Part shown: positions 7,685 through 50,189 of the stretch, one piece after another | Layout of the letters: each line of letters begins with the position of its first letter | Numbering within the stretch: the first letter of the stretch is position 1 | From: a virus | Strand: one strand, 5' to 3' | Length of the DNA stretch: 64,000 nt | IMG/VR virus record: IMGVR_UViG_3300044993_000765 | Span: 11,954 to 75,953 of that record | Position numbers and translations under genes: made by a program | The notes under the pieces: generated by a model | Told to the model about the DNA's origin: nothing | Database searches by the model: none | What the model saw: the letters and a program-made list of their open reading frames with translations, nothing else

Positions 7685-7690
7685 GAGCGA

Positions 7691-8416
7691 TCAGGATTTG
7701 GGGGACGAGCGACGCAGATGCTGCAGATCGAGATCGATCGAGTACGGCGGCTCAGGGGACGGCACGAGCGACGCTGGAGTCGTCGCATCGGTTGGCGTGA
7801 AGAAGGACGGCGGAAAGATCGCCTGGGAGGATTCGGCACCAGGGGGCTGCACTGGCCACATCGGAGGCAAGACCGGCCGGTAATGCGGCTGCGCAGGTGG
7901 CGCACTCAAGGCTGCGGCCAGTGGCGCATAGGGCGGCAAGAAGGTGGGCGTAGCGGACTGGCCCAGCGCCTGTGCGATGAATGCGGGGGAGCGTTTGGGC
8001 TGCGGGTACGGCGACGACGGCAAGCTGGCCCAGGTGCGCCCATCCTTTCGGACAGCGGTGGCGTAATCCCCGCGAAGTACATCATCCAGCGATCCGCTGC
8101 GTCGCATCAATTCCAGCGCACCTAGATCCTGCGAGCGCGGCGAGAAGTCGCTCAAGCCAAGCGTCCCCGCGATATCATTCCAAGTGGAGTGCAGAAACTG
8201 GTACTTGCCCGCTGCCGTTGTCGTGTTGGCTTTACCGTCCGTCTGTCGGAACCTTCTCGCAATGCCGGGATGACGAGACAGATCGGGGATGGCACTGCCT
8301 CCGAAGGCGACGCGATAAGGATCGGCGTATCTGGCTGTCCCTTCGGCTTGCGCGATCAGGTCGAGATAACGACGGACATTCGGATGTTCCAATAGCGCGG
8401 TCAGATCGCGGCTCAT
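7691..8416 (-). CDS. Lambda-R-like (GH104) muramidase/lytic transglycosylase with Pro-rich tail, probably virion-associated
   Basis: LDLIAQAEGT and TTAAGKYQFLHSTW...FSPRSQD motifs; sits among injection genes. Confidence 0.85.
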   Translation of the reverse strand: MSRDLTALLEHPNVRRYLDLIAQAEGTARYADPYRVAFGGSAIPDLSRHPGIARRFRQTDGKANTTTAAGKYQFLHSTWNDIAGTLGLSDFSPRSQDLGALELMRRSGSLDDVLRGDYATAVRKDGRTWASLPSSPYPQPKRSPAFIAQALGQSATPTFLPPYAPLAAALSAPPAQPHYRPVLPPMWPVQPPGAESSQAIFPPSFFTPTDATTPASLVPSPEPPYSIDLDLQHLRRSSPKS

Positions 8417-24052: not shown

Positions 24053-24499
24053 TCATGCCGCTGCGCGGGGAGAGGCCGACAGGTTCACATGCCGCATCCA
24101 TTCGCCCATCGTGATCTGCGGGGGGCATTTCCCTGCCGCGATCTGCTTCTTCAGACGGATTTCTTCGCGATCTACCGCTATCGATCGAGGCGCGACTACC
24201 CCGATGCGCACCTGCCTGTTGCGCAGTGCCGAAAAACCTAGATATGTCGGCTTGAACGAGACGCTGACATCTGCGTCTCCCACCTCAAAGCGATCCTGGC
24301 TTAGCAGGGTGAGGAGATAGAAAGAGGTCCCGTCGCCCAGAGCCGCGCCTCGCATTTTCACGCCGTTGACGATCAGCGGTACCGAAGGGGGCGCGAGCAC
24401 ACCCAGCATGACGTGGTAGCACAGCTTGTCGTAGACGGTGAGACAGATACTGTCTCCGATGTATATCGTCTCGCCCACCCTGCGCGTGAGGATTAGCAT
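24053..24499 (-). CDS. Single-chain tandem CsrA/RsmA-like protein
   Basis: Begins MLILTRRVGETIYIGD; second repeat ends QVRIGVVAPRSIAVDREEI. Confidence 0.8.
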   Translation of the reverse strand: MLILTRRVGETIYIGDSICLTVYDKLCYHVMLGVLAPPSVPLIVNGVKMRGAALGDGTSFYLLTLLSQDRFEVGDADVSVSFKPTYLGFSALRNRQVRIGVVAPRSIAVDREEIRLKKQIAAGKCPPQITMGEWMRHVNLSASPRAAA

Positions 24500-24903
24500 C
24501 GCGTGCTCTCCTGCCGTGGCATTGCCCACTGTTGTGCCATATCTGACGGATCGGCATCGCCCGTGTGCTCGTAACTGACACGAATTGCTGCGGGCGTCGC
24601 AATCCCGACATGAACACAGTCCACGCAGTCTGCAGCCAGCGATACGACATCGCCAGGCAGCCAGATCGCGATGAGGATGTCGTCGATACGAAAACGGCGG
24701 ACACGTCGAAGCGAGAAGTAGTAAGCCTGTCTGTCATTCGACATCGATAGAGGACTGATCGTCGCACCATCGAAAAGCAGTTCCGACCCAACGGGCGCGA
24801 ATACGCTGACCGCGATCCGATCCTTTTCCCGTCCGCTGACCGCGACCTGCACGTCATTGCCGACATGGACCACCCCTCCCAATTTGCAGGTCATCACCAA
24901 CAT
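24493..24903 (-). CDS. Degenerate tandem CsrA-like protein
   Basis: MLVMTCKLGGVVHVGNDVQV...; homolog of 46315..46761. Confidence 0.65.
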   Translation of the reverse strand: MLVMTCKLGGVVHVGNDVQVAVSGREKDRIAVSVFAPVGSELLFDGATISPLSMSNDRQAYYFSLRRVRRFRIDDILIAIWLPGDVVSLAADCVDCVHVGIATPAAIRVSYEHTGDADPSDMAQQWAMPRQESTRC

Positions 24904-25070
24904 GCGTCCAAGCTCCCTGTTCAGTGAGCGCGACATGGCAGGGCCACCCCGCCCGTCATAACTCAGGGACCAAAATACACCATTGGTTTATTATAATGCA
25001 ACCGTGGTCTTTACATCTCCCGGCTCACGTCGTCTAATCCCTGCCGCCCCTCCTCTCCGACCCGGCTCCC

Positions 25071-25721
25071 ATGGATTCCTTCGCCCAGGCTCTTTCCGAC
25101 GCCATCGACGACTCCGGCATGCGTGGTGACTTCATCGCCAAGCAGGTCGGCACGACTGCGAACCGCCTTTCGCAGTGGAAGAACGGTCGTCGACCAGTGC
25201 CGGCGCACTACGCGCCCACGCTCGCCGCCGTGCTCGAAGTGCCGCCGGAAAGGATCAGCAGCGCATATGCAAAAGTGATCGAAGCTGGGCTTTCGATTGA
25301 TTCTGCAAATCGATCAACACCGATACCGAGCGGCAACGTCCGTATCCCGAGGCTCGCCGATTTCGGTCGACCCGAAGCTATGGACGACTGCTATCTCCTT
25401 GAAGTCATTGCGCGTCGGAAGCTGGGGACCACACCTGTCGATGACTGCCGCTGGGCTCTGCAGCCCAATGCGGCCATGTCGCCGCTGATCGAGCGGGACT
25501 GCGTGCTGCTCATCGATACGCGCGTCACCCGCCATGCCGACATCATGGACGGGGCGGTGTATGCATTCACCCTCTGGGGACGATCTGATGTCCGCCGGAT
25601 CTTCGTCAGGCGAGATCAGTTGCTGCTGGCTGCCCATAGCTCTGAAGTCGAGCGCATCGAAGTCCATGGCGATGATTTGGCTGATCTCCATCTGCATGGC
25701 ATGGTTGTGGGCTGGCTTTGA
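25071..25721 (+). CDS. XRE HTH regulator with S24/LexA-like C-terminal domain lacking the catalytic dyad
   Basis: IAKQVGTTANRLSQWKNGRRP HTH; NAAMSPLI...VLLID...DVRRI. Confidence 0.8.
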   Translation: MDSFAQALSDAIDDSGMRGDFIAKQVGTTANRLSQWKNGRRPVPAHYAPTLAAVLEVPPERISSAYAKVIEAGLSIDSANRSTPIPSGNVRIPRLADFGRPEAMDDCYLLEVIARRKLGTTPVDDCRWALQPNAAMSPLIERDCVLLIDTRVTRHADIMDGAVYAFTLWGRSDVRRIFVRRDQLLLAAHSSEVERIEVHGDDLADLHLHGMVVGWL

Positions 25722-25824
25722 AAGCCCGCAAGCTTGCGACTTCCGGCGCAGTTTGCTTTACGATCCGTAGCAGTCCACAAATTCGGGACCGGCAAGCGGC
25801 GCCAGGACGCAGGGGAACTGAGGC

Positions 25825-27381
25825 ATGGAAGGCAACAGATGGATCATGTTCGGCAGAGGCCTGTCAGCGTCGGCGGGCTACTGCGCGGCCTATTGGCTTC
25901 TGTGGCAAGCATCCTTTGACCAGTGGTTCCTCCCGGCAGGTTTGCGGGCGACGGTCTTTCTGCTCGCCCCCTTGCGATATTGGCCCTATCTGCTGGTCGG
26001 CGACGCTGCCGCTCTACTCATCATCCGAGCCCCCATGGCCAGTGATTATGGAGCGACTTGGGCTTACCTCAGCCCGTTCTTGCTCGCGCCCTGGGTCACT
26101 TCCGCCGTATTGTCGCTAAGAAGGCTTCTGCCTACCCTAGAACGGCAGGTATCGTGGCTCCCTGCCGCGGGCATTGCCTTGGCCATCTGGGGGACGCTCG
26201 GGAACGTCGCCATCAACGCCGTCCTGTCCGGCCCGTCTTCCTTCGATACTTTCGACAAGGCTTCGAACTTTGCGGTCGGGAATTACCTCGGGATTCTGCT
26301 CCTCGCGCTCCCGGGTTACTTCTTCACGATGGGCAAGCACCGGAAGTTGAAAGGCAGCATCTTCATTCGCGACACCGGAATCGGAGTTCTGCTGGTCGTC
26401 GGAATCTACGCAGCGATCTCTCTTTACGACTTCAGCATGACATCAAGGCAAGTCCTGATGATGTTGATGTTTCTGCCGGCGGCAGGCTTGACGCTTCTGC
26501 ACGGATGGAGAGGGGCGGCAGCCGGCGTGTTCATGGTCAACCTCGCGATCGCGCAGACCATGACCTATACAGGAGAAGAAGCCACCCGAGACCTTGATGT
26601 CTTTGTCGTCCAGTGCGCATTGACCATCGCCGCGATCGTCCTTCTGGCGATTGGAACGAAGATTTCTTTACTCTACAACCGCGCGAGGCAGCTTGGCATT
26701 TCCGAAAAGCGCGCCCTGGAAATGACTCGCTCCAGCCTTTTCATCGGCGAAAACAACCTGCGTGAACAGGTGCTCTTCATGGCGCAGATGCATGTCTACA
26801 TGCACGAGCAACGGACACAACTGGTCGAACTATACAGGGCGCAGGGCAAATTCACGGAAGCGATGCTACTGAACAGCGCAACCGTAGAACACATGCAATC
26901 TTTCGAGAGTCGCGCCGCTGCGATTTACCCATTGAAGATCGAAGAAGTCGGACTCTATCGCGTCATTTTTCCGGATGCCTTCACCGATTTCTGGGCGGGA
27001 GATGCAGAGGTCATCTACTCTAACGCAGTCGGCATGCCGCGCACTCTTTCTGTCGACCTGCAACTGACCGCTTATCGCTGTATCTGCAATGCCTTTACGG
27101 TGCTCGCCCAAAGCGCACCGAAGCAATACGTCGTCAAACTGCGCACATGGAAACGGCGCGGACATCGCGGTATCGTGTTCAAGGTCATCGCAAACTACGC
27201 AGGCTCGCCTCAGATCACACGATCCGGTGCGATGGCCGAGATCGATCTCGAACGGAGAGTCAAGGCGTATGGAGGCGCCATGGCGCGCAAGCAGCTTCAC
27301 TGCGTCCATGTGATGCTATGGGAGCCGACGACTGACGAATCGGCTCCCACAGCAGACGAGGTCCTGCCGTCAGAAAGATGA
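25825..27381 (+). CDS. MASE1-domain membrane sensor with degenerate UhpB-like kinase region
   Basis: WFLPAGLR...YWPYLL and LHGWRGA MASE1 motifs; multiple TM helices. Confidence 0.8.
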   Translation: MEGNRWIMFGRGLSASAGYCAAYWLLWQASFDQWFLPAGLRATVFLLAPLRYWPYLLVGDAAALLIIRAPMASDYGATWAYLSPFLLAPWVTSAVLSLRRLLPTLERQVSWLPAAGIALAIWGTLGNVAINAVLSGPSSFDTFDKASNFAVGNYLGILLLALPGYFFTMGKHRKLKGSIFIRDTGIGVLLVVGIYAAISLYDFSMTSRQVLMMLMFLPAAGLTLLHGWRGAAAGVFMVNLAIAQTMTYTGEEATRDLDVFVVQCALTIAAIVLLAIGTKISLLYNRARQLGISEKRALEMTRSSLFIGENNLREQVLFMAQMHVYMHEQRTQLVELYRAQGKFTEAMLLNSATVEHMQSFESRAAAIYPLKIEEVGLYRVIFPDAFTDFWAGDAEVIYSNAVGMPRTLSVDLQLTAYRCICNAFTVLAQSAPKQYVVKLRTWKRRGHRGIVFKVIANYAGSPQITRSGAMAEIDLERRVKAYGGAMARKQLHCVHVMLWEPTTDESAPTADEVLPSER

Positions 27382-27819
27382 CGGTGTGCGCACCTGCCAG
27401 CGTTGGGTCGCGCCATCCTGGTACAGGATCACTTCCACGTCTTCCGAGCGGAACAGGACCTTGGGCACGCCAGCCGGCTGTGTTTCCGCCTGGATGGTCA
27501 CGCGATCGACATCGCTCCCGATTGGCATGGTCCAGAACGTGTCGCCGATACGGCCCACGGCCGCTCGGACATTGCCGTATTGGTCATTGATCTGGGTATA
27601 GCGAATGCCGTCCCTCTGGAATTCGTAGACCTGCCACGCGGCATCCGCTGCGAGATCCGGCGCAACCGGGAACTCCTGGCCGAGACCGGATTGGGCAGCC
27701 GGAGCCCCGGCCCCATCGCTGGGACACCCGCACTTTGCATGGACCACCGGGGTCGCGAGAACAGCCATCAGGCCGATGAGCGTGAGACCGCGCGTTCTTG
27801 AAGCAACCTTGAAAATCAT
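27370..27819 (-). CDS. Small secreted protein, KCGCPxDG family
   Basis: Sec signal ending VHA; clear homolog of 49239..49691. Confidence 0.8.
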   Translation of the reverse strand: MIFKVASRTRGLTLIGLMAVLATPVVHAKCGCPSDGAGAPAAQSGLGQEFPVAPDLAADAAWQVYEFQRDGIRYTQINDQYGNVRAAVGRIGDTFWTMPIGSDVDRVTIQAETQPAGVPKVLFRSEDVEVILYQDGATQRWQVRTPSSF

Positions 27820-27958
27820 GACTAACTCCTTGTATTCCGTCGAAAAACAGGGATGGCGTTACCGGCAGGAGATGCCGGCGACACCGATTTGGGATACCCG
27901 CTCCATTGGTTTGCGGGCCACTTGACGGTAACACCGGAGTCAGCACATACGCTGCCGG

Positions 27959-28594
27959 TCAATTGCCCGTGTCCGGGCGCAGAACGACCGCCGAAACGGT
28001 CAAGCGCAACCGGGTGAGGATCTCGGCCGGAAGCGTGTTGACGATCAGGACCAATGCATCGGCTCGCGAAAGCCAGTTCCCGACCGCGACCCAGCCCGAT
28101 GCGACCACACCCCCGTTGATCTCCGTGGAGGGGATGCCCTCCCGGACCGACCCGAGAGTAAAGGCCACCCCCTCCTCCGGGACTTCGACCTTCCAGTAGA
28201 CCCCGAGCAGAAAGCAGTCCGGCGGGATCACGACCGGATAGATCGTGTCGTTTTCGGCCAGCGGATGGCAGGCCAGGTACTGCTGAAGACCGACCTGAAG
28301 CCGGCCGGTGTTTTCGGTCGGAAGCAGGCAGTCCTGACGCAGGGTGTACCCGGTATCGATGAGCGCCGGATAGAAGTCCAGTGTTCGCGAAAGGCCATAG
28401 GCCACATGGATCTTGTGGCCCGCCGCTTCGGTCCGGACCGCATCGAGCAGCTCGGTGGTCATGGGGGCATTGGGATCGATCGACATTGGACAGTCGTCCG
28501 CGCAAGCATCGCCGGCCCAGCCGGCCACGTTCTGCGGGAACAACACGTCCTGCGGGGTTTGCCCGCCCCCGTGATACAGATGATGATGTGCCAT
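27959..28594 (-). CDS. Putative capsid-associated/decoration protein
   Basis: Immediately downstream of the major capsid gene; GAGGA SD. Confidence 0.55.
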   Translation of the reverse strand: MAHHHLYHGGGQTPQDVLFPQNVAGWAGDACADDCPMSIDPNAPMTTELLDAVRTEAAGHKIHVAYGLSRTLDFYPALIDTGYTLRQDCLLPTENTGRLQVGLQQYLACHPLAENDTIYPVVIPPDCFLLGVYWKVEVPEEGVAFTLGSVREGIPSTEINGGVVASGWVAVGNWLSRADALVLIVNTLPAEILTRLRLTVSAVVLRPDTGN

Positions 28595-28626
28595 GGTGGT
28601 TTCCTCTGTGGATGAGTCGCCTGCAA

Positions 28627-29577
28627 TCAATTGAACCGAACGTAGGCGACGCCCAGATGTTCGGGGAACAGCGGTTTATGGCCGAAGATCGACAGCCCGC
28701 GGAAGTACGAGCCGAAGAAGTGCTCGGACTTGATGACATCCGCGTCCTGCAACTGCTGCACGTAGCCCGTGGCCATGCGCTGGCCGAAGATCACGAAGCT
28801 GCACTGTGCGTTGGCAGTCTGATCCAGCACGGTCGGCACGAAGTTGCTGCCCATGAGCTGGAAGCCGGCCGGCGCGAGCGCGCCCATCGTGTTCCCGCGC
28901 GGGTCCACAATGAAGCTGCGCGGCAGACCGGTGATATACGCACTGGCCAGCGGCGATGTGAACAACGCGGTCTGCGCTGCGTCAGGCAGGATCATGAACA
29001 TCTGCCCGGCCTCGAAGGCATTGGCTTCGCCCATGACGGTTCGACAACGGGCCATGAACTCCAGCAGGTTGGCGCCCGTAATCTGCAGCGGGGCGCCTAC
29101 CCGACCCAGGTTGATGTTGCGGCTGATCGAGCCGGCGTTGCTGCCTTTGTTGTACGGCGCTGCATGACGGATCATCTTCGCCAGCACCGATTTTTCCTGC
29201 GCGTAACCGACGGTACGGCCGCCGCTGTCCTCCAGAGACTTGATGAGTCGATCCACATTGCGGATCTGCTTCATGTCCACGCGATCGAGCTTGTAGTTCC
29301 AGTAGAAGCCTTCGTCCACGGTGAGCGTGGTGCTTTCGACTTCCGGGGTGTTGGTCAGAAGCCTGGCATTTTTCTGGTAACGGTGGACGGTCGCGACCGG
29401 TTCACGCTGGAAGGTGATGCTGTCGCCGAACTGTTCGAGTTGTCCGGTGTAGCTGGTGGTGGTGATGTCTTTCAGGATCGTGGCCGCGTAGGACCGGATC
29501 AGAAAGCGGTTGTAGAACTGCGGTTGGATCAGGCTGCCCGAGTATTGCGGGTAGCCGGAGGCGGCGGGAATCGCCAT
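28627..29577 (-). CDS. Major capsid protein
   Basis: 316 aa after the scaffold; YTGQLEQFGDSITF and FFGSYFRGLSIFGHK patterns of P22-coat-like capsids. Confidence 0.75.
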   Translation of the reverse strand: MAIPAASGYPQYSGSLIQPQFYNRFLIRSYAATILKDITTTSYTGQLEQFGDSITFQREPVATVHRYQKNARLLTNTPEVESTTLTVDEGFYWNYKLDRVDMKQIRNVDRLIKSLEDSGGRTVGYAQEKSVLAKMIRHAAPYNKGSNAGSISRNINLGRVGAPLQITGANLLEFMARCRTVMGEANAFEAGQMFMILPDAAQTALFTSPLASAYITGLPRSFIVDPRGNTMGALAPAGFQLMGSNFVPTVLDQTANAQCSFVIFGQRMATGYVQQLQDADVIKSEHFFGSYFRGLSIFGHKPLFPEHLGVAYVRFN

Positions 29578-39477: not shown

Positions 39478-40053
39478 CTACTTCGGTTCGGCCGCGTCTC
39501 CCTGCTCGTAAAGCGACACCAAACCCTGCTCGCCGACGGCGTGCGTGCTGCACGGGAAATAGACCAGTTCGTCGATCACGTTCAACCACGCGCCGTTGAA
39601 TCGCTCGATCAGGTTGCGCTGCCAAGCATGCGGCATCGCCCAGATGTGTTTGCAGCGGGCCACGGCAACGTCATAGCTCGCATGCGGCTCGAAGTACACC
39701 AGGTACAGCGGCGTCACCTGTTCTGGTCCATAGCGGCGCTTCTGCATGCGATTGATCCAGTTCATCTCTTCATAGGCCCACACCAGACTGCTCGACACCG
39801 CCTTGCTTGCGACGTTGACGTAGTACGGCCGGGCGCGCGCAAATGCCAACATGTACACGACGGCCTCCGGTTCCGGCAGAGGTCGGCCGCGCAGGCTGTC
39901 CAGCGTCCAGGTGGTCGCCTCCGGCGCTGGGACTTCGGATCGCGCGGTCTCCGCCTCCAGCGTCGCCGGGGTGAGGCTTGCGAGATCAGCCGCCACCGCC
40001 GCCTCCACCACCTCCGCCGCCGCCACCCCCATCGCCGCCGCCATCGCCATCAC
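39478..40053 (-). CDS. Degenerate GIY-YIG (YhbQ-like) protein; start uncertain
   Basis: VYMLA...YYV and LVYFE.H....A.AR.K.I....AW...LIE..N..W. Confidence 0.5.
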   Translation of the reverse strand: MMAMAAAMGVAAAEVVEAAVAADLASLTPATLEAETARSEVPAPEATTWTLDSLRGRPLPEPEAVVYMLAFARARPYYVNVASKAVSSSLVWAYEEMNWINRMQKRRYGPEQVTPLYLVYFEPHASYDVAVARCKHIWAMPHAWQRNLIERFNGAWLNVIDELVYFPCSTHAVGEQGLVSLYEQGDAAEPK

Positions 40054-43000
40054 CCTGTGGTCCCGATGATGGTGTCAGCGTGCGCGGGCCGATCCGCATC
40101 ACCGGACCCTCGGTTTCCTGTCGCTCCTTTTTCGCCAGTTCTTCGGCCTGTATCTGCGCCAACACCTGTTCTCGCATCACCGTTGCAGCCTGCGCCATCG
40201 CTGAGGACTGCTCCAGCGAAGTGTGCAGCGCCTGCTGCGTATTGATCCCCGCACGGTGGCAGTAGTCGGTCGTCGGATCGCCCTGCACCGGAATCAGCGT
40301 GGCAGGCAAGCCGGGACCGGGCGCGCTTTGGGTGCTTACGCACAGACTGTCGATACGGGTGGCGAACTTGTCTTCGGCCAGGAACTGCGCCACCACGCCG
40401 GCCGCTAAGCGGCTTTTCTCCTCCTGCGTCAGCAGGCCCGCCGGCACCACGTCGCCGCGTTCGATCAGGCCCAACGCCTGCGTGTACATCGCATGCGCCG
40501 GGTGGCCGGGGTGCGTCATCAGCGTGGGCGCGGGCGACGCTTGTTCCGATGCTTGGGTGGGTTGCCGATCTTCTTCGCGTTCGTCGCGGGTCGCGGCGCG
40601 ATGGGCGAGCGCCGGATCGAGTGCCGTCGCGGTTTGCGGTGCGGTTTGCGCCTCGGCGCGCGCGGTATATTCGGGTTCGCGCTCGGGTGTGTCGTCGGTG
40701 CTGCGTGCCGTCGATGCGGACAGGCCCACGGTACGCGCTGCGGCGGCGGGCTCCGGTGTGTCCTGTGCTGGCGTCGAACGGTTTGGGCCGCTTGGTTCGC
40801 CACGTTCCCGCTCGCGTTGCGCCGCAAGCGCACGATCCACCGCGTCGCGCGTGTCCTGATCGGCGATGCCAGTCGCGGGGATGCCGTGCATCGTCTGGAA
40901 CTGGCGCACGGCGTGTTCGGTTTCCGGGCCGTACTGGCCGGTTTGTGGGATCTGCGTGCCGTCCGGTCCACGATAGCCTTGCCGGTCGAGGCGGTATTGC
41001 AACAGTTCGACATCATCGCTGCGGTCGCCCAGGCGTAGAACATCGGGATCGGATGTCGTGGGCGCGGGCGTCGTCGTTTCGATCTTCGCGGCGGTGCGCT
41101 CAGACTCTGGCAACGATTCGCGTTCTGGCGCGGCGGTCACGGTGGACGGTGGCGAGGGTTCGCGCGGTGTTTCGACTGCCGGCGACGCGGCGTGTCGATC
41201 GCTCGTCGCCGTTCGCACATCCGGTTCGGTGGTCGTCGTGTTCGGCTGCTGTGCGGATTCGCGTTCGCTCACAGGCGCGGTGGTGGGCGGGCTGCTGTCG
41301 TTCGCCTGCACACCGTTGGGCGGCGTTTGATCGCGCGCCGCGCGCTCAGCGTCGCGATGCTGTTCGATGTCCGCGCGTTCGCGCTCAATACGCGCGGCGT
41401 CATCGTCGCGTGCGTCGCGCGCCATCGTTGCGACGGCTGTCGCCGCCAGTGGAACATTCTGCGCCGTGGGCGTGTCCTGCACACGTTCGCGCTGCGGTGT
41501 GTTCTCCGGCGTTTCCTCGGTGGCGCGTGCTGCGTCGCCTGCCGGCGTCATCACGCGCGCCGATGCGCCCACGGCTGCCGCATCGACAGCTTGCTGCGCG
41601 TCTTCTTTCGACAACCCCTGTCGATTCGCCTCGCGCTGCGCCTGTTCGCGTGCGTCGCGTTCTTCGGGCGTCGCCTGCGTGATCGTGCGTTCCGGCACCG
41701 GCTGCGCATACGCGACGGCGTACTGCGTCGGCTGATCGGCGATGCCGGTCGCAGGCAAGTCGTGGGCCTGCTGAAATTTCGCGACCGCGTACACGGTGTC
41801 TTGGTCGTAGTGTCCATTTTGCGGAAGCGGCTGGCCGTCGATCCCACGATAGCCCTGTTGATCGAGACGGTATTGCAGCAACGCGACCTGATCGTTGCGG
41901 TCGCCGGGGTACGCGGTATCGGGATCGCGCGGGCCTGCCATCATCGCTTGGATCGCGGCGGTTTGCGCGGGGTTCTGTGTCGTGGGCACATCCTGCGCGC
42001 GCTCGCGTTGTGGTGCGTTCTCCAACGCCTGTTCGGGCGTGCGGATTGCATCCTCTGCTGGCGTGGTTCCGCGCGCCGGTGCGCCGATGGTGGCCGCATG
42101 GACGGCTTGCTGCGTGTCGTCGTTCGATAGTCCTTGCCGGTTCGCTTCGCGTTGCGCCTGCTCCGCAGCGTCGCGTTGCTCCGGCGTGGCGAACGCGATG
42201 GTCTGCTCGGGTGCTGCATGCGCGGGCGATGGCGCTTGCTGTTCATGCGATTTCAGTTCGCGCAACTCGGCCGCGATGTCGTTCGGCGTCGTGGTCGCCG
42301 CTGTCTCCACGTTCTTGCCGTCAGCGCCGCCAAAACGCGTATGACGAATCTCAATCTCGGCGATGGACTTCCCCGCCGTGTTCGGCTCAAGTTCAAGCGC
42401 ATTGACGCCCGCTATCAGCCCATGCTCGGCGCGCGTGCGTTGCACGGCAGCGTAGGCCGCCTCGAATTCCTCTGGTCGAACGTCGGGATTGCGGCCCGCA
42501 TCGACGTACAGGCGGCGCAATGCGGCGCGGTCGGCCTGTTCTGGCGTGGGCGGCGTCCAGTCGGGAATGCGCGCGAGTTCCTTCTCGTATCCCGGCATCG
42601 CCGAAAGCAAGCGTTCGCGCGTCAAGTCCAGTTCCAGCGCGCGCTGAGGGGGTGCCGGTTCGCCGCCGCGCATCCACGTCCCTTGCGCATCCCGTTCGTA
42701 AACACGTTCGTCGGAGGCTTGCAGTCGGTCGGTCGTCATGGCGCTGGTCACGGCCGCCGGCACCTCGCCGGCTTCGCCGTAGCCGTAGGCTTTGTGTCCC
42801 AACTGGTAGCGCATCGCGATGGCCGCCGGCCCCGCTTGAAGGTTCTCGTCTATCGTCTGGCGTGCTTGGGCATTCAACTGCGCGGTGCGCTCTGGACTGG
42901 CGTACTCCGGCTCCGCGTTCCACTCGGGGGCGCCTTCGCGATCCACGGTATCGGCCACTTGGCGCGACCAGCGTTCGCTTTCCACGTTGTAGGTCCAACG

Positions 43001-44308
43001 TCCTGTCTGCACATGCGCGGGGTCGCTCTCCGACACCGGCTGCACGAACGGGTTGCGCGGCGTCGGCACCTTGCCCAGCGCCTGTTCGGCCGCCTCCACC
43101 CCGGCCTGATAACTCAACTGCTGCGCTTTCTCGGGGGGCGCGCGATACCGCGCCGGTTGAAAGTCGCTGATCCCATCGTCCACTCGGTCGGCGCGCAAAT
43201 CTTCGCGAATCCAGTCCTTGCCGTTGTAGCCCCACGTCACGCCCGGTTCGTCGCGATCTTTCTGCGAATAAATCTTCTCGTTTTGCCAATGCGTGACGGC
43301 GCGATCAGCGGCTTCGGCCATGAGAAACGCATCGGCCGCCACCAACACCAGCGGACCCGTGCCCGTGGCGCCCACGGCGGCCGCCGTGAGCGTGCCGCCG
43401 CCCCAGCCCGCGACATTCCGTGCGCCGAAACGTGCCCACTGCTCGTTCGCGGCGGTCGCGTTGTCCTGCGCCCACAGTTCGCTGGTGCGTACCGTCGTTT
43501 GGTACGCATCGAGTCCCGTTGCCGCAATACCGCCCATGCGCAGGGCTTGGTTGGCGGAAAGATCGCCGACCAGAAATTCAGGCGAGATAAAACCGCGCTG
43601 GCCGCGTGGCACGCGGAACGCGCGCTCTGCCGCTTCGGCCCCTTGCTCGGTCAGCGTCAAGCGACCATTCTCCTGCGCGCTGTCCACCGCCTCCGACAAG
43701 CTCTGCAAGCCTCTCGCGGCATTGCCCTTGATGGTTTTCTTTCCGGGCTGGTCGATGGTCTCCAGGCTGGCGGTCAGATGCGATTCGGATTTCAGCACCG
43801 CCGGCCAACGCGCTTCGGGGCCGGTGAGTTTGCCGACCGCCTCGATCTCAAGCGCATGCGTGCGCTGGTATTCGGGGAGATTGCGAAAGAACGCCGCGTT
43901 CCTCGCGTTCGCGGCTTCGGGTGTCATGCCTTCCGGCGTGTTGGTCAGCAGATCGCCGTTGACCATTGCGAATTTGAGGGTGTCGCAGAGGTGGTTTACT
44001 CTTGCCGCTACCCGCTCGGCGGCGGCTCGATTTCCTGCGAGTGTGGCTTGACCATCCGGCGTTTCGGCCAGCTTTTCAAGTGCGTCTGTCAGTTTGTCAG
44101 AATACTCGCCCAGCGGTCCACCATTGTGAGGCGTGACGTCGAGTTTCAATGCTAATTGCCTGTCGGCAGGCAAGTTCAGCAGATTGCGGTCGCCATGTAA
44201 GTCAAACAGACCTCCTCGCGTGAGGTCTTGCAATAGCTTGCTTCTTTTATACGCATCTTGCTCAATGACGTGATGCCCTTGAAATACAGGCTGGTCGTGC
44301 TTAGCCAT
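39986..44308 (-). CDS. X-T4SS effector: N-terminal AHH (HNH-fold) nuclease, two peptidoglycan-binding domains, C-terminal XVIPCD-like domain
   Basis: FQGHHVI...NLLNLP...PHNGG; two V.LLQYRL..QGY...AV..FQ..H..P.TG.AD repeats; HPAHAMY...PVQGDP...TSLEQSS. Confidence 0.82.
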   Translation of the reverse strand: MAKHDQPVFQGHHVIEQDAYKRSKLLQDLTRGGLFDLHGDRNLLNLPADRQLALKLDVTPHNGGPLGEYSDKLTDALEKLAETPDGQATLAGNRAAAERVAARVNHLCDTLKFAMVNGDLLTNTPEGMTPEAANARNAAFFRNLPEYQRTHALEIEAVGKLTGPEARWPAVLKSESHLTASLETIDQPGKKTIKGNAARGLQSLSEAVDSAQENGRLTLTEQGAEAAERAFRVPRGQRGFISPEFLVGDLSANQALRMGGIAATGLDAYQTTVRTSELWAQDNATAANEQWARFGARNVAGWGGGTLTAAAVGATGTGPLVLVAADAFLMAEAADRAVTHWQNEKIYSQKDRDEPGVTWGYNGKDWIREDLRADRVDDGISDFQPARYRAPPEKAQQLSYQAGVEAAEQALGKVPTPRNPFVQPVSESDPAHVQTGRWTYNVESERWSRQVADTVDREGAPEWNAEPEYASPERTAQLNAQARQTIDENLQAGPAAIAMRYQLGHKAYGYGEAGEVPAAVTSAMTTDRLQASDERVYERDAQGTWMRGGEPAPPQRALELDLTRERLLSAMPGYEKELARIPDWTPPTPEQADRAALRRLYVDAGRNPDVRPEEFEAAYAAVQRTRAEHGLIAGVNALELEPNTAGKSIAEIEIRHTRFGGADGKNVETAATTTPNDIAAELRELKSHEQQAPSPAHAAPEQTIAFATPEQRDAAEQAQREANRQGLSNDDTQQAVHAATIGAPARGTTPAEDAIRTPEQALENAPQRERAQDVPTTQNPAQTAAIQAMMAGPRDPDTAYPGDRNDQVALLQYRLDQQGYRGIDGQPLPQNGHYDQDTVYAVAKFQQAHDLPATGIADQPTQYAVAYAQPVPERTITQATPEERDAREQAQREANRQGLSKEDAQQAVDAAAVGASARVMTPAGDAARATEETPENTPQRERVQDTPTAQNVPLAATAVATMARDARDDDAARIERERADIEQHRDAERAARDQTPPNGVQANDSSPPTTAPVSERESAQQPNTTTTEPDVRTATSDRHAASPAVETPREPSPPSTVTAAPERESLPESERTAAKIETTTPAPTTSDPDVLRLGDRSDDVELLQYRLDRQGYRGPDGTQIPQTGQYGPETEHAVRQFQTMHGIPATGIADQDTRDAVDRALAAQRERERGEPSGPNRSTPAQDTPEPAAAARTVGLSASTARSTDDTPEREPEYTARAEAQTAPQTATALDPALAHRAATRDEREEDRQPTQASEQASPAPTLMTHPGHPAHAMYTQALGLIERGDVVPAGLLTQEEKSRLAAGVVAQFLAEDKFATRIDSLCVSTQSAPGPGLPATLIPVQGDPTTDYCHRAGINTQQALHTSLEQSSAMAQAATVMREQVLAQIQAEELAKKERQETEGPVMRIGPRTLTPSSGPQGDGDGGGDGGGGGGGGGGGGGG
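41441..42190 (-). repeat. Internal ~78-aa duplication in the effector (about 41441..41674 and 41957..42190)
   Basis: ATPE.RDA.EQAQREANRQGLS..D.QQAV...PQRER.QD.PT.QN occurs twice. Confidence 0.85.
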
Positions 44309-45519: not shown

Positions 45520-45942
45520 TCAGGCCGCGTCCTCGATCACATACCCATGCGTATCCGCGATGCGACGTGAGTTCGCGTGGGGATCGGTACGTGCGATTTC
45601 CTCGCGTCGGATCACCAATCCAGACGGTGCGATCACTGCAATGCGGATCTGTCGCTGCCCGCCGCGCACCTTGCGCTTTGCGCTGGTCGCTTCTCCGACA
45701 ACGATCACCGCATCGCCGAGTTGCAAGGACTCGCCCGTGAGCAACCAGAGCAGGTAGAACGCGCTGCCGTTGGAAGTCGTCACCGGCCGCAGCGCGTCGC
45801 CTTCATCGGCGACCAGGACATCCAGTGGCGCGGCGACGGCGACAAGCACGCACGACCCGCGACGATCGCGCACGGTCAACCTCACGTCGTCACCGATGCG
45901 CAGGCTTTCGCCCGTCCTTCGATTCAGTACCAACCGGCCCAT
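45520..45942 (-). CDS. Single-chain tandem CsrA/RsmA-like protein
   Basis: LVLNRRTGESLRIGDDV...QIRIAVIAPSGLVIRREEI; homolog of 24053..24499. Confidence 0.8.
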   Translation of the reverse strand: MGRLVLNRRTGESLRIGDDVRLTVRDRRGSCVLVAVAAPLDVLVADEGDALRPVTTSNGSAFYLLWLLTGESLQLGDAVIVVGEATSAKRKVRGGQRQIRIAVIAPSGLVIRREEIARTDPHANSRRIADTHGYVIEDAA

Positions 45943-45943
45943 G

Positions 45944-46315
45944 TCATCCCTTCCTTTGGTAGCGCGACAGGCGCGCGCCCTGGGTACGCGCGATTTGCAT
46001 CGCTTCAGGTGCCTCTATCTCGAACTGCGCATCGCGCATCGCACGCGCGGTGCCTGCGTGTTCTCGCGCATCGCTGATGCGTACGCGCACCGGGCCAATC
46101 TCGAACGCATCACCGTCGAACAGGGCGAGGACGTGCGCGCGCCAACCGAATCCGCACGGCGCACTGGCGCGGAAGCCGTCCACGTCGCCCAGTGCGTTGT
46201 CCTGATGGGCCTCGATGTAGACGTACCAGGTGCCATCGACCCACCCGGTCAGATTCAAGCGGATGTGGTCGCCAAAACTGACGATTTCGCCGATGGCGAC
46301 GTGCAGCACGCGCAT
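45944..46315 (-). CDS. Highly degenerate tandem CsrA-like protein
   Basis: VLHVAIGEIVSFGDHIRL...FEIGPVRV...FEIEAP. Confidence 0.6.
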   Translation of the reverse strand: MRVLHVAIGEIVSFGDHIRLNLTGWVDGTWYVYIEAHQDNALGDVDGFRASAPCGFGWRAHVLALFDGDAFEIGPVRVRISDAREHAGTARAMRDAQFEIEAPEAMQIARTQGARLSRYQRKG

Positions 46316-46761
46316 CAGCGATGCCCCGAGAAAGTACCGGCCTCGCCCAGCGTCCCGCCCAAGGGGGCGCGCGGCAACGCGGAGGAGGCCGGCAGGGAAA
46401 CCGGGGCGAACCTGTCCCGGAGCGATGAGCCGATAACCCGATCCGCCACGGCGGACGCGATGCCAAGGTGAACCGCGTCATCGCAGCCGCGTGCATGTGG
46501 CACCACGTCGCCGGGCAACCAGACCTGCAAGGCCAGATGCCCCAGTCGGAAGCGGCGCACGGCCAGCAGTGAGAAGACATAGCCCCAGGTGCCGTCCGCG
46601 CGGCGTAGCGGCTCCAGGCGCGCGCCGTCCAGCCACAGGCAGATGCCGGCTGCCGCGCTCACAGACAGCGCCACACGGGGACCGATGCGAGCCTGGACGA
46701 CGATCCGGCTTCCTTCACCAACCCGGACGGGTTGGCCAACACGGCACGTCATCACCTCCAC
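46315..46761 (-). CDS. Degenerate tandem CsrA-like protein
   Basis: AGGAGG SD before GTG; VMTC.VG..V.VG and Y.FSL..VRRFR...WLPGDVV..A..C.D.VH.GIA shared with 24493..24903. Confidence 0.7.
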   Translation of the reverse strand: MEVMTCRVGQPVRVGEGSRIVVQARIGPRVALSVSAAAGICLWLDGARLEPLRRADGTWGYVFSLLAVRRFRLGHLALQVWLPGDVVPHARGCDDAVHLGIASAVADRVIGSSLRDRFAPVSLPASSALPRAPLGGTLGEAGTFSGHR

Positions 46762-46894
46762 GGGACACCTCCTGTGTGGCCGGACGAGGAGGCCGGCGGC
46801 AGGCGCATCGTTACCGGCGTTAACGCTGGTGTCAATAGGATGAATTTCTGATGTAGGCTTACACCATCCCCGTTCAGCCCGGAACCTGCCCCCC

Positions 46895-47551
46895 ATGAAC
46901 AAGTATTCCCAAGCCTTCCACGACGCCATGAAACGCACCGGCCTGCGTAACGTCGTGATCGCCGCGCACGTCGGGAAAGTCGGCAACAACTGTGTTGCGC
47001 AGTGGCGTTCGGGGCGTCGCCCCATCCCCGCCGAACACGCGCCCAAGGTCGCCGGCCTCCTCGGCATCCTTCCCGAGCAGATCAGCGAGTCCTACGATCG
47101 ACTGGTGAAGGCGGGTGCTCTGCTGCCGGATGCGGTGCCCGGCCGAAATGCGCCGCCGTACGGCCATATCGTGCTGTCGGAACTGGAGGATTTCAGCCGA
47201 GAAGCCGAACAGCCGCGCATCTGGCTCCCGGAGTCGATCACCAAGCGCAAGCTGGGCCTGACGCGGCCCGCCGACGTGCGCTGGGCGCTGCAACCGTCGC
47301 TGTCGATGGCCCCGGACATCGAGCGGCAGGCGCTGGTGCTGATCGACATCACCGCGCAGCGGCACGAGGACGTGGTGGACGGTGGCCTGTACGCCTACGC
47401 GCTATGGGGCAGGCCGGACATCCGGCGCATCCTGGTCCGCCGCGATGCCTGGACGCTGGTGGGGACCAACCCGGAAGTGGAACGGGTGACGGTGACTGAG
47501 GAAGAATTGCCGGAGCTTCGCGTGTTCGGCAGCGTGATCGGCTGGATTTGA
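46895..47551 (+). CDS. XRE HTH regulator with S24-like domain lacking the catalytic Lys
   Basis: QWRSGRRPIPAEHAP; RWALQP...LID...LWGR.D.RRI...GW shared with 25071..25721. Confidence 0.82.
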   Translation: MNKYSQAFHDAMKRTGLRNVVIAAHVGKVGNNCVAQWRSGRRPIPAEHAPKVAGLLGILPEQISESYDRLVKAGALLPDAVPGRNAPPYGHIVLSELEDFSREAEQPRIWLPESITKRKLGLTRPADVRWALQPSLSMAPDIERQALVLIDITAQRHEDVVDGGLYAYALWGRPDIRRILVRRDAWTLVGTNPEVERVTVTEEELPELRVFGSVIGWI

Positions 47552-47654
47552 CGGGCGGGATCGGGCCTAGAATGGCATGACGCCAGCGCGGCGATCGGCA
47601 CACCCTGTCGGATCAGACAGGGGCGGCGACAACACAGGGAACAGGGAGCGGAAT

Positions 47655-49202
47655 GTGGGCAAGACCTGGGGCAGGTATCTCGCGAAGGGCATCGTCATCG
47701 CCGTGGTGTACGGCGTCGCCTATCTGGCGCTGCGCTACATCTCGTTCAACCAGTGGTTCCTGCCGGCGGGGTTGCGCGCGGCATGCCTGCTGTTCCTGCC
47801 GTATCGGTATTGGCCCTTCCTCTTTCTTGGGGAAGCGGGACTCACGCTGTCCAAGAAGATCGAGATGATCGATGTCTATGGTGCAGCATGGGTCTACCTT
47901 AGTCCGTTGCTCATGCCGCCGATGGTCTCGGCGCTTCCATTTCTGGTCAGAAGGAAGCTGGGAACCGGTGATCGGTTGATGCGATGGCTGCCATTGCCCG
48001 CAGCCCTGATGGCCATTTGGTCTTCGACTTGCAATTTCGCGGTGAATCGTCTTCTTGACGGTCCAAATCATCCAGAAGACTTGAAGGCATTCTTGGGGTT
48101 TGTCATTGGCGACTACCTCGGGATTCTCACCGCGCTGATGATCGTTTTTTTGTTTCGATCCCTGCGAAGAGAGCGCCATGTCTCATTTGGCTTCATCCGT
48201 GACTCCGTGATTTCCGCTGCACTGATCGGATTCGCCTACGTCTGGATCGAGCACTTTCTAGCCGAGGACGATTTTCTCCGTCTTGCGTTGCTCATGACGA
48301 TGACGATTCCCATCGTACTACTGACCTTTTTCCACGGTTGGAGAGGAGCCGCTGTTGGCTCATTACTGGCGAGTCTTGGAGTCGCCCAGGCGATGACCTA
48401 TACCGGAATCCAGAACTCAAACAATGACTTGGTTCTCTACGCTCAGATGGGCCTTGTAGTAACGTCTGCCATGTTGCTTCTGCTGGGCGGGCAGATCACT
48501 CGACACTATGAAAGCGCCAAAGCGTCAGGTTTCGCGCAACAGGAAGCACTGAAGCTCGCACGCATGCAGTTGCTGTCCAATGAGCCTGCGGTGCGTGACC
48601 AACTCATCATCATGGCGAGCATGCAGGTGCAGATGGACGACGCCCGCGACCTGCTCGCCAAGGATCTGCACGCCAACGGCAAGGCACGCGAGGCGATGGA
48701 GTTGAACCGCCGCGGCGTCGAGCATCGGCAACTGTTCGAGGTGCAGTCGCTGGTGGTCTATCCCATCGGCATCGAGCGCGACGGCTTGTTCGGCGTGCTC
48801 GACACCGCCGCCTTCCGCGAGTCGCGCGCCAGCGGCGTGGCGGTCGAGTTCGCCTTCGGCCGCATCGACCCGCGCACGCTGTCGGAAGACTTGCAGGTGT
48901 CGGCCTACCGTTGCCTGTGCCACGCCATCGATCACCTGTCGGACTGGGAGCCGGCCCGCTACCGCCTGCGCCTGCGGGTCTGGCATGGTCGCGCCCGGCG
49001 TGGACTCTACCTGTCGGTCGCCATCGACACCGAGTACGCTCGCCACGTCACGCCGCACGGCGAGAGCGCCCTGCTGCTGCTGGAGGCACGGGTCAAGGTC
49101 CACGGCGGGCTGCTGCGCCGTACGCCGCACGGCATTCGCCTGCTTCTGTCGGAGCCGGCCGGGGAGCCTGCCGCCTTCCAGCCGCTGCCCCACACGGAGT
49201 AA
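47655..49202 (+). CDS. MASE1-domain membrane sensor with degenerate kinase-like region
   Basis: SFNQWFLPAGLR...YWPFL, FHGWRGA; homolog of 25825..27381. Confidence 0.82.
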   Translation: MGKTWGRYLAKGIVIAVVYGVAYLALRYISFNQWFLPAGLRAACLLFLPYRYWPFLFLGEAGLTLSKKIEMIDVYGAAWVYLSPLLMPPMVSALPFLVRRKLGTGDRLMRWLPLPAALMAIWSSTCNFAVNRLLDGPNHPEDLKAFLGFVIGDYLGILTALMIVFLFRSLRRERHVSFGFIRDSVISAALIGFAYVWIEHFLAEDDFLRLALLMTMTIPIVLLTFFHGWRGAAVGSLLASLGVAQAMTYTGIQNSNNDLVLYAQMGLVVTSAMLLLLGGQITRHYESAKASGFAQQEALKLARMQLLSNEPAVRDQLIIMASMQVQMDDARDLLAKDLHANGKAREAMELNRRGVEHRQLFEVQSLVVYPIGIERDGLFGVLDTAAFRESRASGVAVEFAFGRIDPRTLSEDLQVSAYRCLCHAIDHLSDWEPARYRLRLRVWHGRARRGLYLSVAIDTEYARHVTPHGESALLLLEARVKVHGGLLRRTPHGIRLLLSEPAGEPAAFQPLPHTE

Positions 49203-49238
49203 GCCCGGACGCCCTCGCGGGCTTCCGGGCCGCCGTCC

Positions 49239-49691
49239 TCACTCCGCCGCGCCCAGGGTGCGGATGAGCCAACGGGTCACGCTGCCGTCCTGGTAGCGCA
49301 CCACTTCCACGTCGGTGCCGCGATACAGCACGCTGGGCACGCCCGCCGGCACGGCATCGCCGGGCACGGCCACACGGTCGGCGTCGGTGCCGATCGGCAT
49401 GATCCAGGCGGTGCCGCCGATGCGCCCGGCTGCCGCGCGCACGGTGCCGGCGGAATCGTTGATCTGCACGTAGCGCACGCCGTCGCGCTGGAACTCGTAG
49501 ATCTGCCAGGCGGGATCGGCGGCAAGATCGACGGCGGCCGGGAAGGACTCGCCGAGTCCACTTGAGGCCGCTTGGCTCCAGTGCCCATCGGCGGGGCAAC
49601 CGCATTTCGCCCAGGCGCTCGGCGTGAAGAATAGTGCGCAGGCCAGCAGGGCGAGCGGCGCGCAGGCGGAACGGGAAAGATACATCGACAT
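49239..49691 (-). CDS. Small secreted protein, KCGCPxDG family
   Basis: Sec signal ending AWA; homolog of 27370..27819. Confidence 0.8.
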   Translation of the reverse strand: MSMYLSRSACAPLALLACALFFTPSAWAKCGCPADGHWSQAASSGLGESFPAAVDLAADPAWQIYEFQRDGVRYVQINDSAGTVRAAAGRIGGTAWIMPIGTDADRVAVPGDAVPAGVPSVLYRGTDVEVVRYQDGSVTRWLIRTLGAAE

Positions 49692-50189
49692 GATGAAACT
49701 CCTTTGGTCTTGGTCCGTGTTGAGGTGCTAACGGCGCGACGGTTCCCCCGGCCTGCCGTTAACGATGGATGGCCCGCTTGGCGTCTTCGCAGCGGGCATC
49801 TTGACGGTACCACCCCTATTCGCGTCCCGGCCCGTGCCGGCCGCACTGCGCCGCAGGCGGCATCGCCGGGGTTCGCGAGCAGCATCCGGATCGCACGCTG
49901 GCGCGCTTCGTGCGCCGTCCTGAGCGGTGGCTCCCCCCGTTCCTGCGGCCTTCTGGCCGTGTGGTGCGGGTGGTGCGGCGGCCGATGGATGCCATGCCCA
50001 CGCTGCGGAACTGCAGGGGACGACGTGGCCGCTGGGGGTGTGCGCCGCGATGCGCGTTCGCCGGAAAGGTTCTGGCCCATTCTGGCCGTTGGCTTCAGGT
50101 GGGCGTGCCGCCCCCGCGCGCGCGCGCGGAACGATTGGTTTTCCGCCCCTTCTGGGCGCGATCCTGACGCCCTCGCGCGCGCGGAACGG

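Follow-up and report, generated by a model that had tools for sequence, protein, structure and literature searches.

A small exported protein encoded convergently with a MASE1 gene, a candidate periplasmic partner of a DesK-like (pseudo)kinase

The stretch of 64,000 nucleotides analysed here (the window) covers positions 11,954 to 75,953 of the virus record IMGVR_UViG_3300044993_000765 of IMG/VR, which in full is a provirus of 75,953 bases with source DNA from hot-spring or microbial-mat metagenomes. In two places it carries a small gene convergent with a gene for a membrane sensor of the MASE1 type, and the question that this locus raises is what the small, apparently exported protein does beside a sensor. 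A preliminary description, made from the sequence, had proposed a ligand, a pheromone precursor or a periplasmic modulator of the sensor. The observation behind that proposal is confirmed by our analysis and its interpretation is partly supported: we favour, with moderate confidence, the view that the small protein is exported and acts in the periplasm as partner or co-sensor of a DesK-like MASE1 (pseudo)kinase.

The coding sequence (CDS) of copy 1 lies at positions 27370..27819 (minus strand, stop codon included; 149 aa, P0001) and that of copy 2 at 49239..49691 (minus strand; 150 aa, P0002), the latter within an integrase/primase island. The two proteins align without gaps with 79/123 identities (64%; BLASTP, E 3e-60). 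The coding frame is credible because both copies have an AAGGAG Shine-Dalgarno sequence 12-13 nt before the ATG, the G+C content of third codon positions (GC3) is 0.72 in copy 1 and 0.85 in copy 2, and in tblastx this frame has the highest score (204 bits vs 151 for the antisense frame). The MASE1 partner of copy 1 is encoded at 25825..27381 (plus strand; 518 aa, P0226) and that of copy 2 at 47577..49202 (plus strand; 541 aa, P0227), with a paralogy of about 38% to the first in tblastx. The small gene is thus convergent with the sensor gene in both copies, as had been described, with a 12-bp overlap at copy 1 and a 36-bp gap at copy 2. Both pairs belong to a duplicated block (24260-27822 vs 45697-49694) with four parts, namely CsrA-like genes, an HTH-S24 repressor, the MASE1 gene and the small gene, of which the small gene is the best kept (approximately 63% vs 38-46% for the others in tblastx).

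Comparative genomics strongly supports the proposal that the small protein works with the adjacent sensor. In 78 of the 79 loci taken from one genome per species (185,579 species genomes), the direct neighbour of the small gene, as detected by tblastn, is a convergent MASE1 gene. With hidden Markov models applied to all loci, 97 of the 112 small-family hits have a convergent MASE1 gene at most 1.5 kb from their 3' end; among the 15 unpaired hits, 13 are the remotest members of the family, which had been picked deliberately, and the eight long enough for a tree form a separate clade. The coupling was also found in the reverse direction, where an alignment of this MASE1 type was compared with 151 genomes and 24 of the 27 resulting neighbourhoods have the small gene as the convergent 3' neighbour. 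Conservation around the small gene is limited to four gene families (CsrA-like, repressor, MASE1 and the small gene itself), and the flanks of the cassette vary, including phage genes, PrmA, PurH, TrpG/TrpD, PgsA and RHS toxins. The pair is found next to prophage head genes, in satellites, in integrase/primase islands and between chromosomal housekeeping genes. It is kept in Xanthomonas and Dyella, where the repressor and the CsrA-like genes were not detected, and also in three genomes with a stand-alone MASE1 (315-321 aa, no kinase-like domain) downstream of an extracytoplasmic function (ECF) sigma factor and NrsF. Because the pair survives without the kinase-like domain and with other genes changing, the constant partner of the small gene is the MASE1 membrane domain. 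Both window copies are convergent with and adjacent to MASE1 at the 3' end, and by gene order the small gene and MASE1 form a two-gene module, of which a literature search found no published description.

Some loci depart from the simple pair. A second, tandem MASE1 gene lies beside the pair in three genomes of the reverse search, and two MASE1 paralogs flank or precede one small gene at L113/L135, L115/L133 and L118/L134 (genomes G039, G133 and G093), where one exported protein may serve two sensors. Tandem small genes, in two or three copies, are present at L004 (7211-8423), L023 (7139-8384), L027 (7323-9128) and L102 (5001-5744); at L004 a MASE1 remnant (7666-7794) lies between them, which suggests recombination or decay of the cassette at the convergent junction. 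At L088, L106 and L107 (positions ~2400-5500) the gene order is ECF sigma factor, NrsF anti-sigma factor, stand-alone MASE1 and then a convergent small-family member with a C-terminal C-x(4-5)-C. Neighbours of these three loci, as read from N-terminal sequences only, include DUF692-like genes and, at L106, a Cys-rich precursor of the bufferin type; a link of this context to metal or oxidative-stress sensing is possible.

On direct reading, both small proteins begin with a Sec-type signal peptide, in which a basic n-region is followed by some 12-15 hydrophobic residues and an A-x-A-type -3/-1 pattern, in agreement with the general features of Sec/signal peptidase I (SPase I) substrates (basic n-region, h-region of 10-15 residues, small residues at -3/-1). 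In copy 1 the signal peptide comprises residues 1-28 (MIFKVASRTRGLTLIGLMAVLATPVVHA; 27736..27819, minus strand), with V-H-A at -3..-1. Cleavage is predicted between VHA and K in copy 1, where the translation reads TPVVHA followed by KCGCPSDGAGAPAAQSGLGQEFP, and between AWA and K in copy 2, where it reads TPSAWA followed by KCGCPADGHWSQAASSGLGESFP. Re-translation agrees exactly with the mature N-termini of the preliminary description, KCGCPSDGAGAPAAQ and KCGCPADGHWSQAAS, which both start with KCGCP, and throughout the family alignments A-x-A stands ahead of the Cys motif. The lipobox [LVI][ASTVI][GAS]C does not fit the window copies, which have VHAK-C and AWAK-C with K at -1.

The mature protein of copy 1 starts with a tail of 16 residues (29-44, KCGCPSDGAGAPAAQS; 27688..27735, minus strand) composed of the Cys pair and a Pro/Gly/Ala-rich linker, with a predicted local distance difference test score (pLDDT) below 50. 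It is followed by an all-beta domain (residues 45-149; 27373..27687, minus strand), of which residues 45-107 are the conserved half, as delimited by the AlphaFold2 (AF2) model and the invariant columns. In this model (m9721d01024fd, built with 30 homologs) the signal peptide and the tail are disordered and the domain of about 105 residues is confidently folded (pLDDT >90), the block of residues 45-149 having eight beta strands at pLDDT 80-97. Structure searches with the domain found no convincing fold relative, the matches being below the level counted as meaningful. Neither copy has a match in NCBIfam or PHROGs, copy 1 has none in Pfam, and a Pfam scan of 34 diverse family members, including both copies, gave just three stray sub-threshold matches. 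Profile searches in Pfam likewise gave no match to YfiR, NlpE or CpxP and hence no membership in those families by sequence, and the matches in the ESM Atlas are unnamed clusters only. The small protein therefore belongs to an unannotated family without a convincing structural relative.

At 90% identity the homologs form 76 clusters, each unnamed or 'hypothetical' and from Lysobacter-like sources, and at 50% identity there are 223 representatives. Of 401 genomes from the order that includes Lysobacter brunescens (G001), 68 carry the family, with one to six matches per genome, and in a phylum-wide sample of 401 genomes it occurs only in the four members of this same order; among the genomes searched it was found only in Xanthomonadales/Lysobacterales. 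Lysobacteraceae-type cassettes also appear in metagenome-assembled genomes (MAGs) that bear the label of another phylum or class, at L002 and L011 (a Chitinophaga pinensis MAG) and at L056 (a Bosea MAG), where binning contamination is more likely than transfer. A distant orphan clade without the Cys pair and without MASE1 is represented by L097 and L100 (4854-8148) and by L094, L095 and L105 (~5001-5400). Its gene is convergent with a 4HB_MCP-HAMP chemoreceptor in two high-GC genomes, and in Xanthomonas it lies in a fixed housekeeping neighbourhood. In a quick maximum-likelihood tree the two window copies sit in different supported subclades and are therefore no recent local duplication.

The family alignments change the earlier picture of an invariant CxC followed by a variable stretch and a well-conserved domain. 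The CxC is identical in the two window copies but varies within the family, where relatives carry CGC, CSC, CC, a C-terminal C-x(4-5)-C or no Cys at all. Most frequent are A-x-A-x-CGC-P and A-x-A-(x)-CC-P, with CSC, CGCA and CCA/CCV also present; one nested clade with good support is Cys-free (AQ[VAM]S[DG]G..) and keeps the full cassette, and Rhodanobacteraceae-type members have, instead of the N-terminal Cys pair, a C-terminal C-x(4-5)-C such as CSDPVEC. The stretch after the CxC does not stand out as variable, since the mean pairwise identity of the tail (residues 29-44) is 37%, similar to the 32% of the C-terminal half of the domain (residues 108-149), and it has its own consensus, P-S-D-G-x-G-A-P-x-A, within a family-wide tail consensus C(G)CPSDGxGAPxA. 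The well-conserved domain stands for residues 45-107, with 64% identity and many invariant positions, and does not extend to residues 108-149. The conserved residues of copy 1 in this half are GLG, P51, D55, W62, Y65, F67, G71, Y74, Q76, N78, D79, R85, P99, G101 and D103. For the MASE1 partner, the corresponding means are 39% in the membrane part and 37% in the cytoplasmic part.

The AF2 model of the partner of copy 1 (pLDDT 86) has a helical membrane bundle up to about residue 280, then a long helix, a helical hairpin and an alpha/beta domain. Its cytoplasmic part (residues ~286-505 of the protein encoded at 25825-27381, plus strand), with a DHp-like hairpin and the alpha/beta domain, matches DesK and other histidine kinases in Foldseek (3ehj_A, E 2.6e-5, prob 1.0), and cytoplasmic domains of AgrC are among the matches. 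Pfam detects in the partner only MASE1 (82 bits, residues 10-278), with no match to HisKA_3 or HATPase, and an alignment of 30 sequences has no invariant or near-invariant His in the DHp-like helices. A UhpB/DesK-type kinase would combine MASE1 with a DHp hairpin bearing a phospho-accepting His and with an ATP-binding CA domain that has N and G boxes; a conserved AYRC[IL]CNA segment is present where the N-box would lie. A conserved periplasmic Cys of MASE1 as disulfide partner of the small protein found no support, as just one Cys column follows the small protein's Cys state, and it is inside the first transmembrane (TM) helix and its link is confounded by phylogeny. A transposon mutant of Xanthomonas citri XAC1778, a MASE1 'sensor kinase', forms less biofilm, and the same work (PMC3130047) names UhpB as the reference case for MASE1. 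The paired MASE1 gene of the Xanthomonas loci L066-L077 may be orthologous to XAC1778.

The small gene also has a conserved upstream region of its own. In copy 1 a box (TGTTACCGTCAAG; 27921..27933, minus strand) lies 114 nt before the ATG and is followed by a putative 5' leader (27820..27918, minus strand) with hairpin 1 at 27896-27918, hairpin 2 at 27855-27885 and then a single-stranded tail that holds a GGA (27836-27838) and the Shine-Dalgarno AAGGAG (27826-27831); the fold of this leader has a z of -3.2. The upstream region of copy 2 (49692..49812, minus strand) has the same elements, with the box TGGTACCGTCAAG at 49800-49812, the hairpins at 49772-49797 and 49727-49763, the GGA at 49714-49716 and the Shine-Dalgarno at 49699-49704. 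The wider conserved upstream spans are 27820-27939 and 49692-49818 in the window (both minus strand), and correspond to the region ahead of the small gene in L001-L068. A box, with the consensus TGnTACCGTCGAA, was found in 55 of 80 loci and, where the full leader is present, lies 108-136 nt ahead of the estimated start; its TG, TA and T are invariant, and sequence conservation ends abruptly upstream of it. The box may be an extended -10 promoter element (TGnTAnnnT). It was also considered as a terminal repeat of the cassette, which was rejected on account of its only two matches in the window, 27921-27933 and 49800-49812 (both minus strand), being solely upstream of the two small genes. A terminator scan found none around either copy.

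Per-sequence folds give the two-hairpin layout in 41 of 42 distinct leaders, compared with 80 of 420 shuffles (19%), and the stem of hairpin 2 has paired substitutions between clades (GUUAGC/GCUAAC, GUUGGC/GCCAAC, AUUAGC/GCUAAU). They were more informative than RNAalifold on a MAFFT alignment, which recovered just the base of hairpin 1. The unpaired tail of the leader has (C/U)A(C/U)GGA(U/A) 9-14 nt ahead of a CAAGGAG Shine-Dalgarno. At least one CAnGGA is present in 58 of 68 leaders vs 7% of the other genes in the loci, and at least two GGA within 50 nt in 46 of 68 vs 19% of the background genes, the contrast being overstated by the crude starts of the background genes. By sequence and predicted folds, the leader thus has the features of a CsrA-type leader, with at least two GGA, one of them at the Shine-Dalgarno, in unpaired positions. 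The binding consensus of CsrA/RsmA is A/UCANGGANGU/A. Because the leader motifs match this consensus and the cassette encodes CsrA proteins, translation of the small protein is probably under CsrA-type control, either by the CsrA-like proteins of the cassette or by host CsrA. The box and the two-hairpin leader may together be an undescribed cis-regulatory RNA tied to the CsrA-like proteins of the cassette; Rfam has no match in the window.

The gene upstream of the small gene varies by locus, with the same orientation in 47 and the opposite in 23 of 70 loci and a gap usually of 140-700 bp. An operator private to each cassette, recurring between the repressor and CsrA genes and again upstream of the small gene, found no support as a general rule: the exact k-mers shared by these two regions have about the same length within loci (8.59) as across loci (8.28), and inverted repeats common to the two regions were not enriched. 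A 4+4 palindrome, CGTTAACG, is present in both regions of copy 2 and could not be scored by the inverted-repeat test.

Taken in the order of the gene's expression, the mechanism that we propose would begin with production from the gene's own upstream region, where the GGA sites of the leader would gate translation through the CsrA-like proteins of the cassette or host CsrA. The protein would then be exported by Sec to the periplasm as a beta domain of about 105 residues with a flexible 16-residue tail bearing the Cys pair, and would bind the periplasmic face of the cognate MASE1 bundle in the same cell. Because MASE1 has merely short predicted periplasmic loops, the small protein would supply in trans the extracytoplasmic input module that is missing. 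As to the direction of regulation, binding would keep the cytoplasmic, DesK-like part in a single signalling state, and the terminal Cys pair may make the contact with MASE1 sensitive to the redox or metal state of the periplasm.

Where specificity would lie in such a contact is suggested only faintly by co-variation. The pairwise identities of the small protein and of its MASE1 partner correlate with r ~0.74, as linkage alone would give. When the kinase-like domain is controlled for, the partial r between the tail (residues 29-44) and the MASE1 membrane domain is 0.38, and the converse is 0.065; the kinase-like domain is physically nearer on the DNA than the membrane domain, yet the tail tracks the membrane domain more. 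This co-variation is suggestive, only a hint, as the pairs are phylogenetically non-independent. The earlier idea of a specificity in the stretch after the CxC thus receives a weak hint in its favour, and against it stand this non-independence and a C-terminal half that varies as much.

Several observations weigh against a periplasmic partner of MASE1. At the exceptional locus L062 the small gene has no MASE1, three of the 27 MASE1 neighbourhoods are solos without the small gene nearby, and the distant orphan clade of small genes also lacks MASE1. The periplasmic loops of MASE1, as inferred from the AF2 helices and the positive-inside rule, have at most about 12 residues and offer a small docking surface. 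The Cys pair is dispensable in the well-supported nested clade that has the whole cassette. Fused proteins of MASE1 and the small domain were not found at 379 aa or more, which is weak evidence. The co-variation statistics are inflated by shared ancestry and linkage. With regard to expression, a two-hexamer sigma-70 scan found no promoter around either copy, and the overstated GGA contrast bears on the leader in the same sense.

The best surviving alternative, to which we give a limited probability, is that the small protein has an independent periplasmic function, such as metal or redox buffering by its Cys pair or a role as inhibitor, immunity or exclusion factor, and is linked to MASE1 as co-regulated mobile cargo without any contact. 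Under this explanation it is hard to see why MASE1 alone stays attached, given that the pair persists without toxins, repressor and CsrA genes and with differing MASE1 architectures. The Cys-free clade, which retains the pairing, also speaks against this explanation, and the fold matches are below the meaningful level.

It is unlikely that the small protein is a diffusible signal or pro-signal, in which the protein or a peptide from its N-terminal tail would be released by lysis or secretion and sensed by the MASE1 of neighbouring lysogens, as a communication of phages and satellites with cassette-specific variants. Such a role would agree with the predicted export, the upstream region of its own, the presence of two diverged cassettes of different subclades within one provirus record, and a tail and C-terminal half that diverge as fast as the sensor; late read-through transcription is also conceivable for copy 1, which comes directly after phage head genes of the same orientation. 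However, the best-conserved part is a folded domain and not a short peptide, the cassette contains no conserved protease, modification enzyme or exporter, and there is no conserved cleavage motif except GLG, which is part of the fold in the model. In addition, Sec export stops at the periplasm, an incoming protein of 12 kDa would not readily cross the outer membrane, many cassettes are chromosomal and lie between housekeeping genes, and the upstream neighbour is oppositely oriented in 23 of the 70 loci. Of the three roles first proposed, the periplasmic modulator fits best. The pheromone precursor is disfavoured by the folded and conserved domain of about 105 residues, by a Sec route that ends in the periplasm and by a cassette without a processing or export gene: peptide pheromones come as released peptides from short precursors with linked processing, export or import, and here we found a protein of 149 aa with a folded conserved domain in a four-gene cassette.

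A wider version of the signal idea, which we regard as quite improbable, would make the cassette a protein-based communication or danger-sensing circuit of Xanthomonadales phages, satellites and islands. The folded protein, coming from lysing or damaged kin, would be sensed in a cassette-specific manner by the MASE1 pseudo-kinase of neighbours, which would switch a non-cleavable CI-like repressor and the tandem-CsrA proteins that control lysogeny and adjacent contact-dependent toxins. If true, this would be an arbitrium-like logic in Gram-negatives with a protein as the signal. The weakest explanation, a membrane-anchored lipoprotein or a subunit that needs MASE1 for insertion or stability (MASE1 then serving the small protein), draws on the part of the CC subclass with the first Cys directly after A-x-A (ASAC, AAAC, AFAC), a loose fit to a relaxed lipobox, and is very improbable given that K, Q, A, R, I or G separates A-x-A from the Cys in the entire CGC class and in the window copies, with H or W at -3, and that Cys-free members exist.

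The two pairs lie in different surroundings in the provirus, copy 1 adjoining phage head genes (major head, portal, terminase) and copy 2 adjoining the primase and integrase. In the cassette of copy 1, the CI/LexA-like HTH-S24 repressor (25071..25721, plus strand) has weak Pfam matches to HTH/S24 and PHROGs matches to 'transcriptional repressor / CI-like repressor'; it is co-directional with and upstream of the MASE1 gene, and is next to the pair in most Lysobacteraceae loci. Divergent from it are two CsrA-like genes at 24493-24936 and 24053-24529 (together 24053..24936, minus strand; conserved cluster 0). The divergent genes of the cassettes encode CsrA proteins, each with a pair of CsrA stretches (PF02599, 62.5 and 46.7 bits); within copy 1, the gene at 24053-24529 scores 62.5 bits over two stretches and that at 24493-24936 scores 22 bits, below the cut-off. 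An open reading frame at 27822-28739 (minus strand) was considered as a translationally coupled upstream gene of copy 1 and is probably a shadow frame: it has no family matches, and the GC3-based call prefers 27959-28630 (minus strand), which closes the head-gene block and leaves a gap of 139 bp to the small gene. Proteins of about 1440 aa are encoded downstream of the CsrA-like genes in 11 loci, L007 (12048-16376) and 10 others, and the frame concerned in the window is 39986-44308 (minus strand). The representative in L007 is an RHS-repeat protein, a family assignment read from that locus and not from the window frame. The cargo of the cassette is interchangeable and its four-gene core is constant.

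Bacterial kinases and cyclic-di-GMP enzymes have MASE1 as one of their most frequent membrane input domains; it has almost no periplasmic surface, and to our knowledge few of its signals are known. A dedicated exported partner at about 100 sampled loci would give one MASE1 lineage a concrete input. The pair also belongs to a compact mobile cassette that encodes a CI-like repressor and CsrA-like proteins, beside interbacterial toxins in prophages and satellites, and could show how such elements time the expression of their cargo.

Known systems resemble this cassette in different parts. The leader is like those of CsrA/RsmA targets, for example hcnA-RsmE, in having a GGA site 9-14 nt before a CAAGGAG Shine-Dalgarno. 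It differs in that the candidate binders are unusual tandem-repeat CsrA-like proteins from the same cassette, and in having no Rfam match. With arbitrium (AimP-AimR), Phr-Rap and AgrD-AgrC the cassette shares a secreted product encoded on a mobile element beside a receptor and a lysogeny-type repressor, with variants specific to each element; those systems use peptides of 5-10 residues from short precursors with processing or import, whereas here there is a folded domain of about 105 residues and no processing gene.

Exported proteins that set the state of membrane sensors include YfiR, NlpE, CpxP and ExoR, and YfiR and NlpE report the redox or copper state of the periplasm through Cys pairs. 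The pairs YfiR-YfiN (TpbB), NlpE-CpxA, CpxP-CpxA and ExoR-ExoS are similar to the one described here in that a small protein with a signal peptide is encoded beside a sensor, and the mechanism that we propose is the same. YfiN, CpxA and ExoS have sizeable periplasmic docking domains, whereas MASE1 has almost none, and the gene here is convergent and not in an operon with the sensor, so that the resemblance to YfiR, NlpE and CpxP is functional only.

A comparison from within the MASE1 family is the sugar-phosphate sensing system of E. coli, where UhpB is composed of MASE1, HisKA_3 and HATPase and relies for sensing on a second protein, UhpC. Unlike the small soluble beta protein of the window, which is predicted to be exported and has no relation to it in sequence or fold, UhpC is a 12-TM transporter homolog in the membrane; moreover, Pfam kinase models do not match the cytoplasmic part of the window partner, and the cassette has no conserved response-regulator gene. 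Common to both systems is a MASE1 protein of the kinase type with a separately encoded partner for its input, a proposed one in the window, and the MASE1 partner in the window also folds like a HisKA_3-type kinase, DesK.

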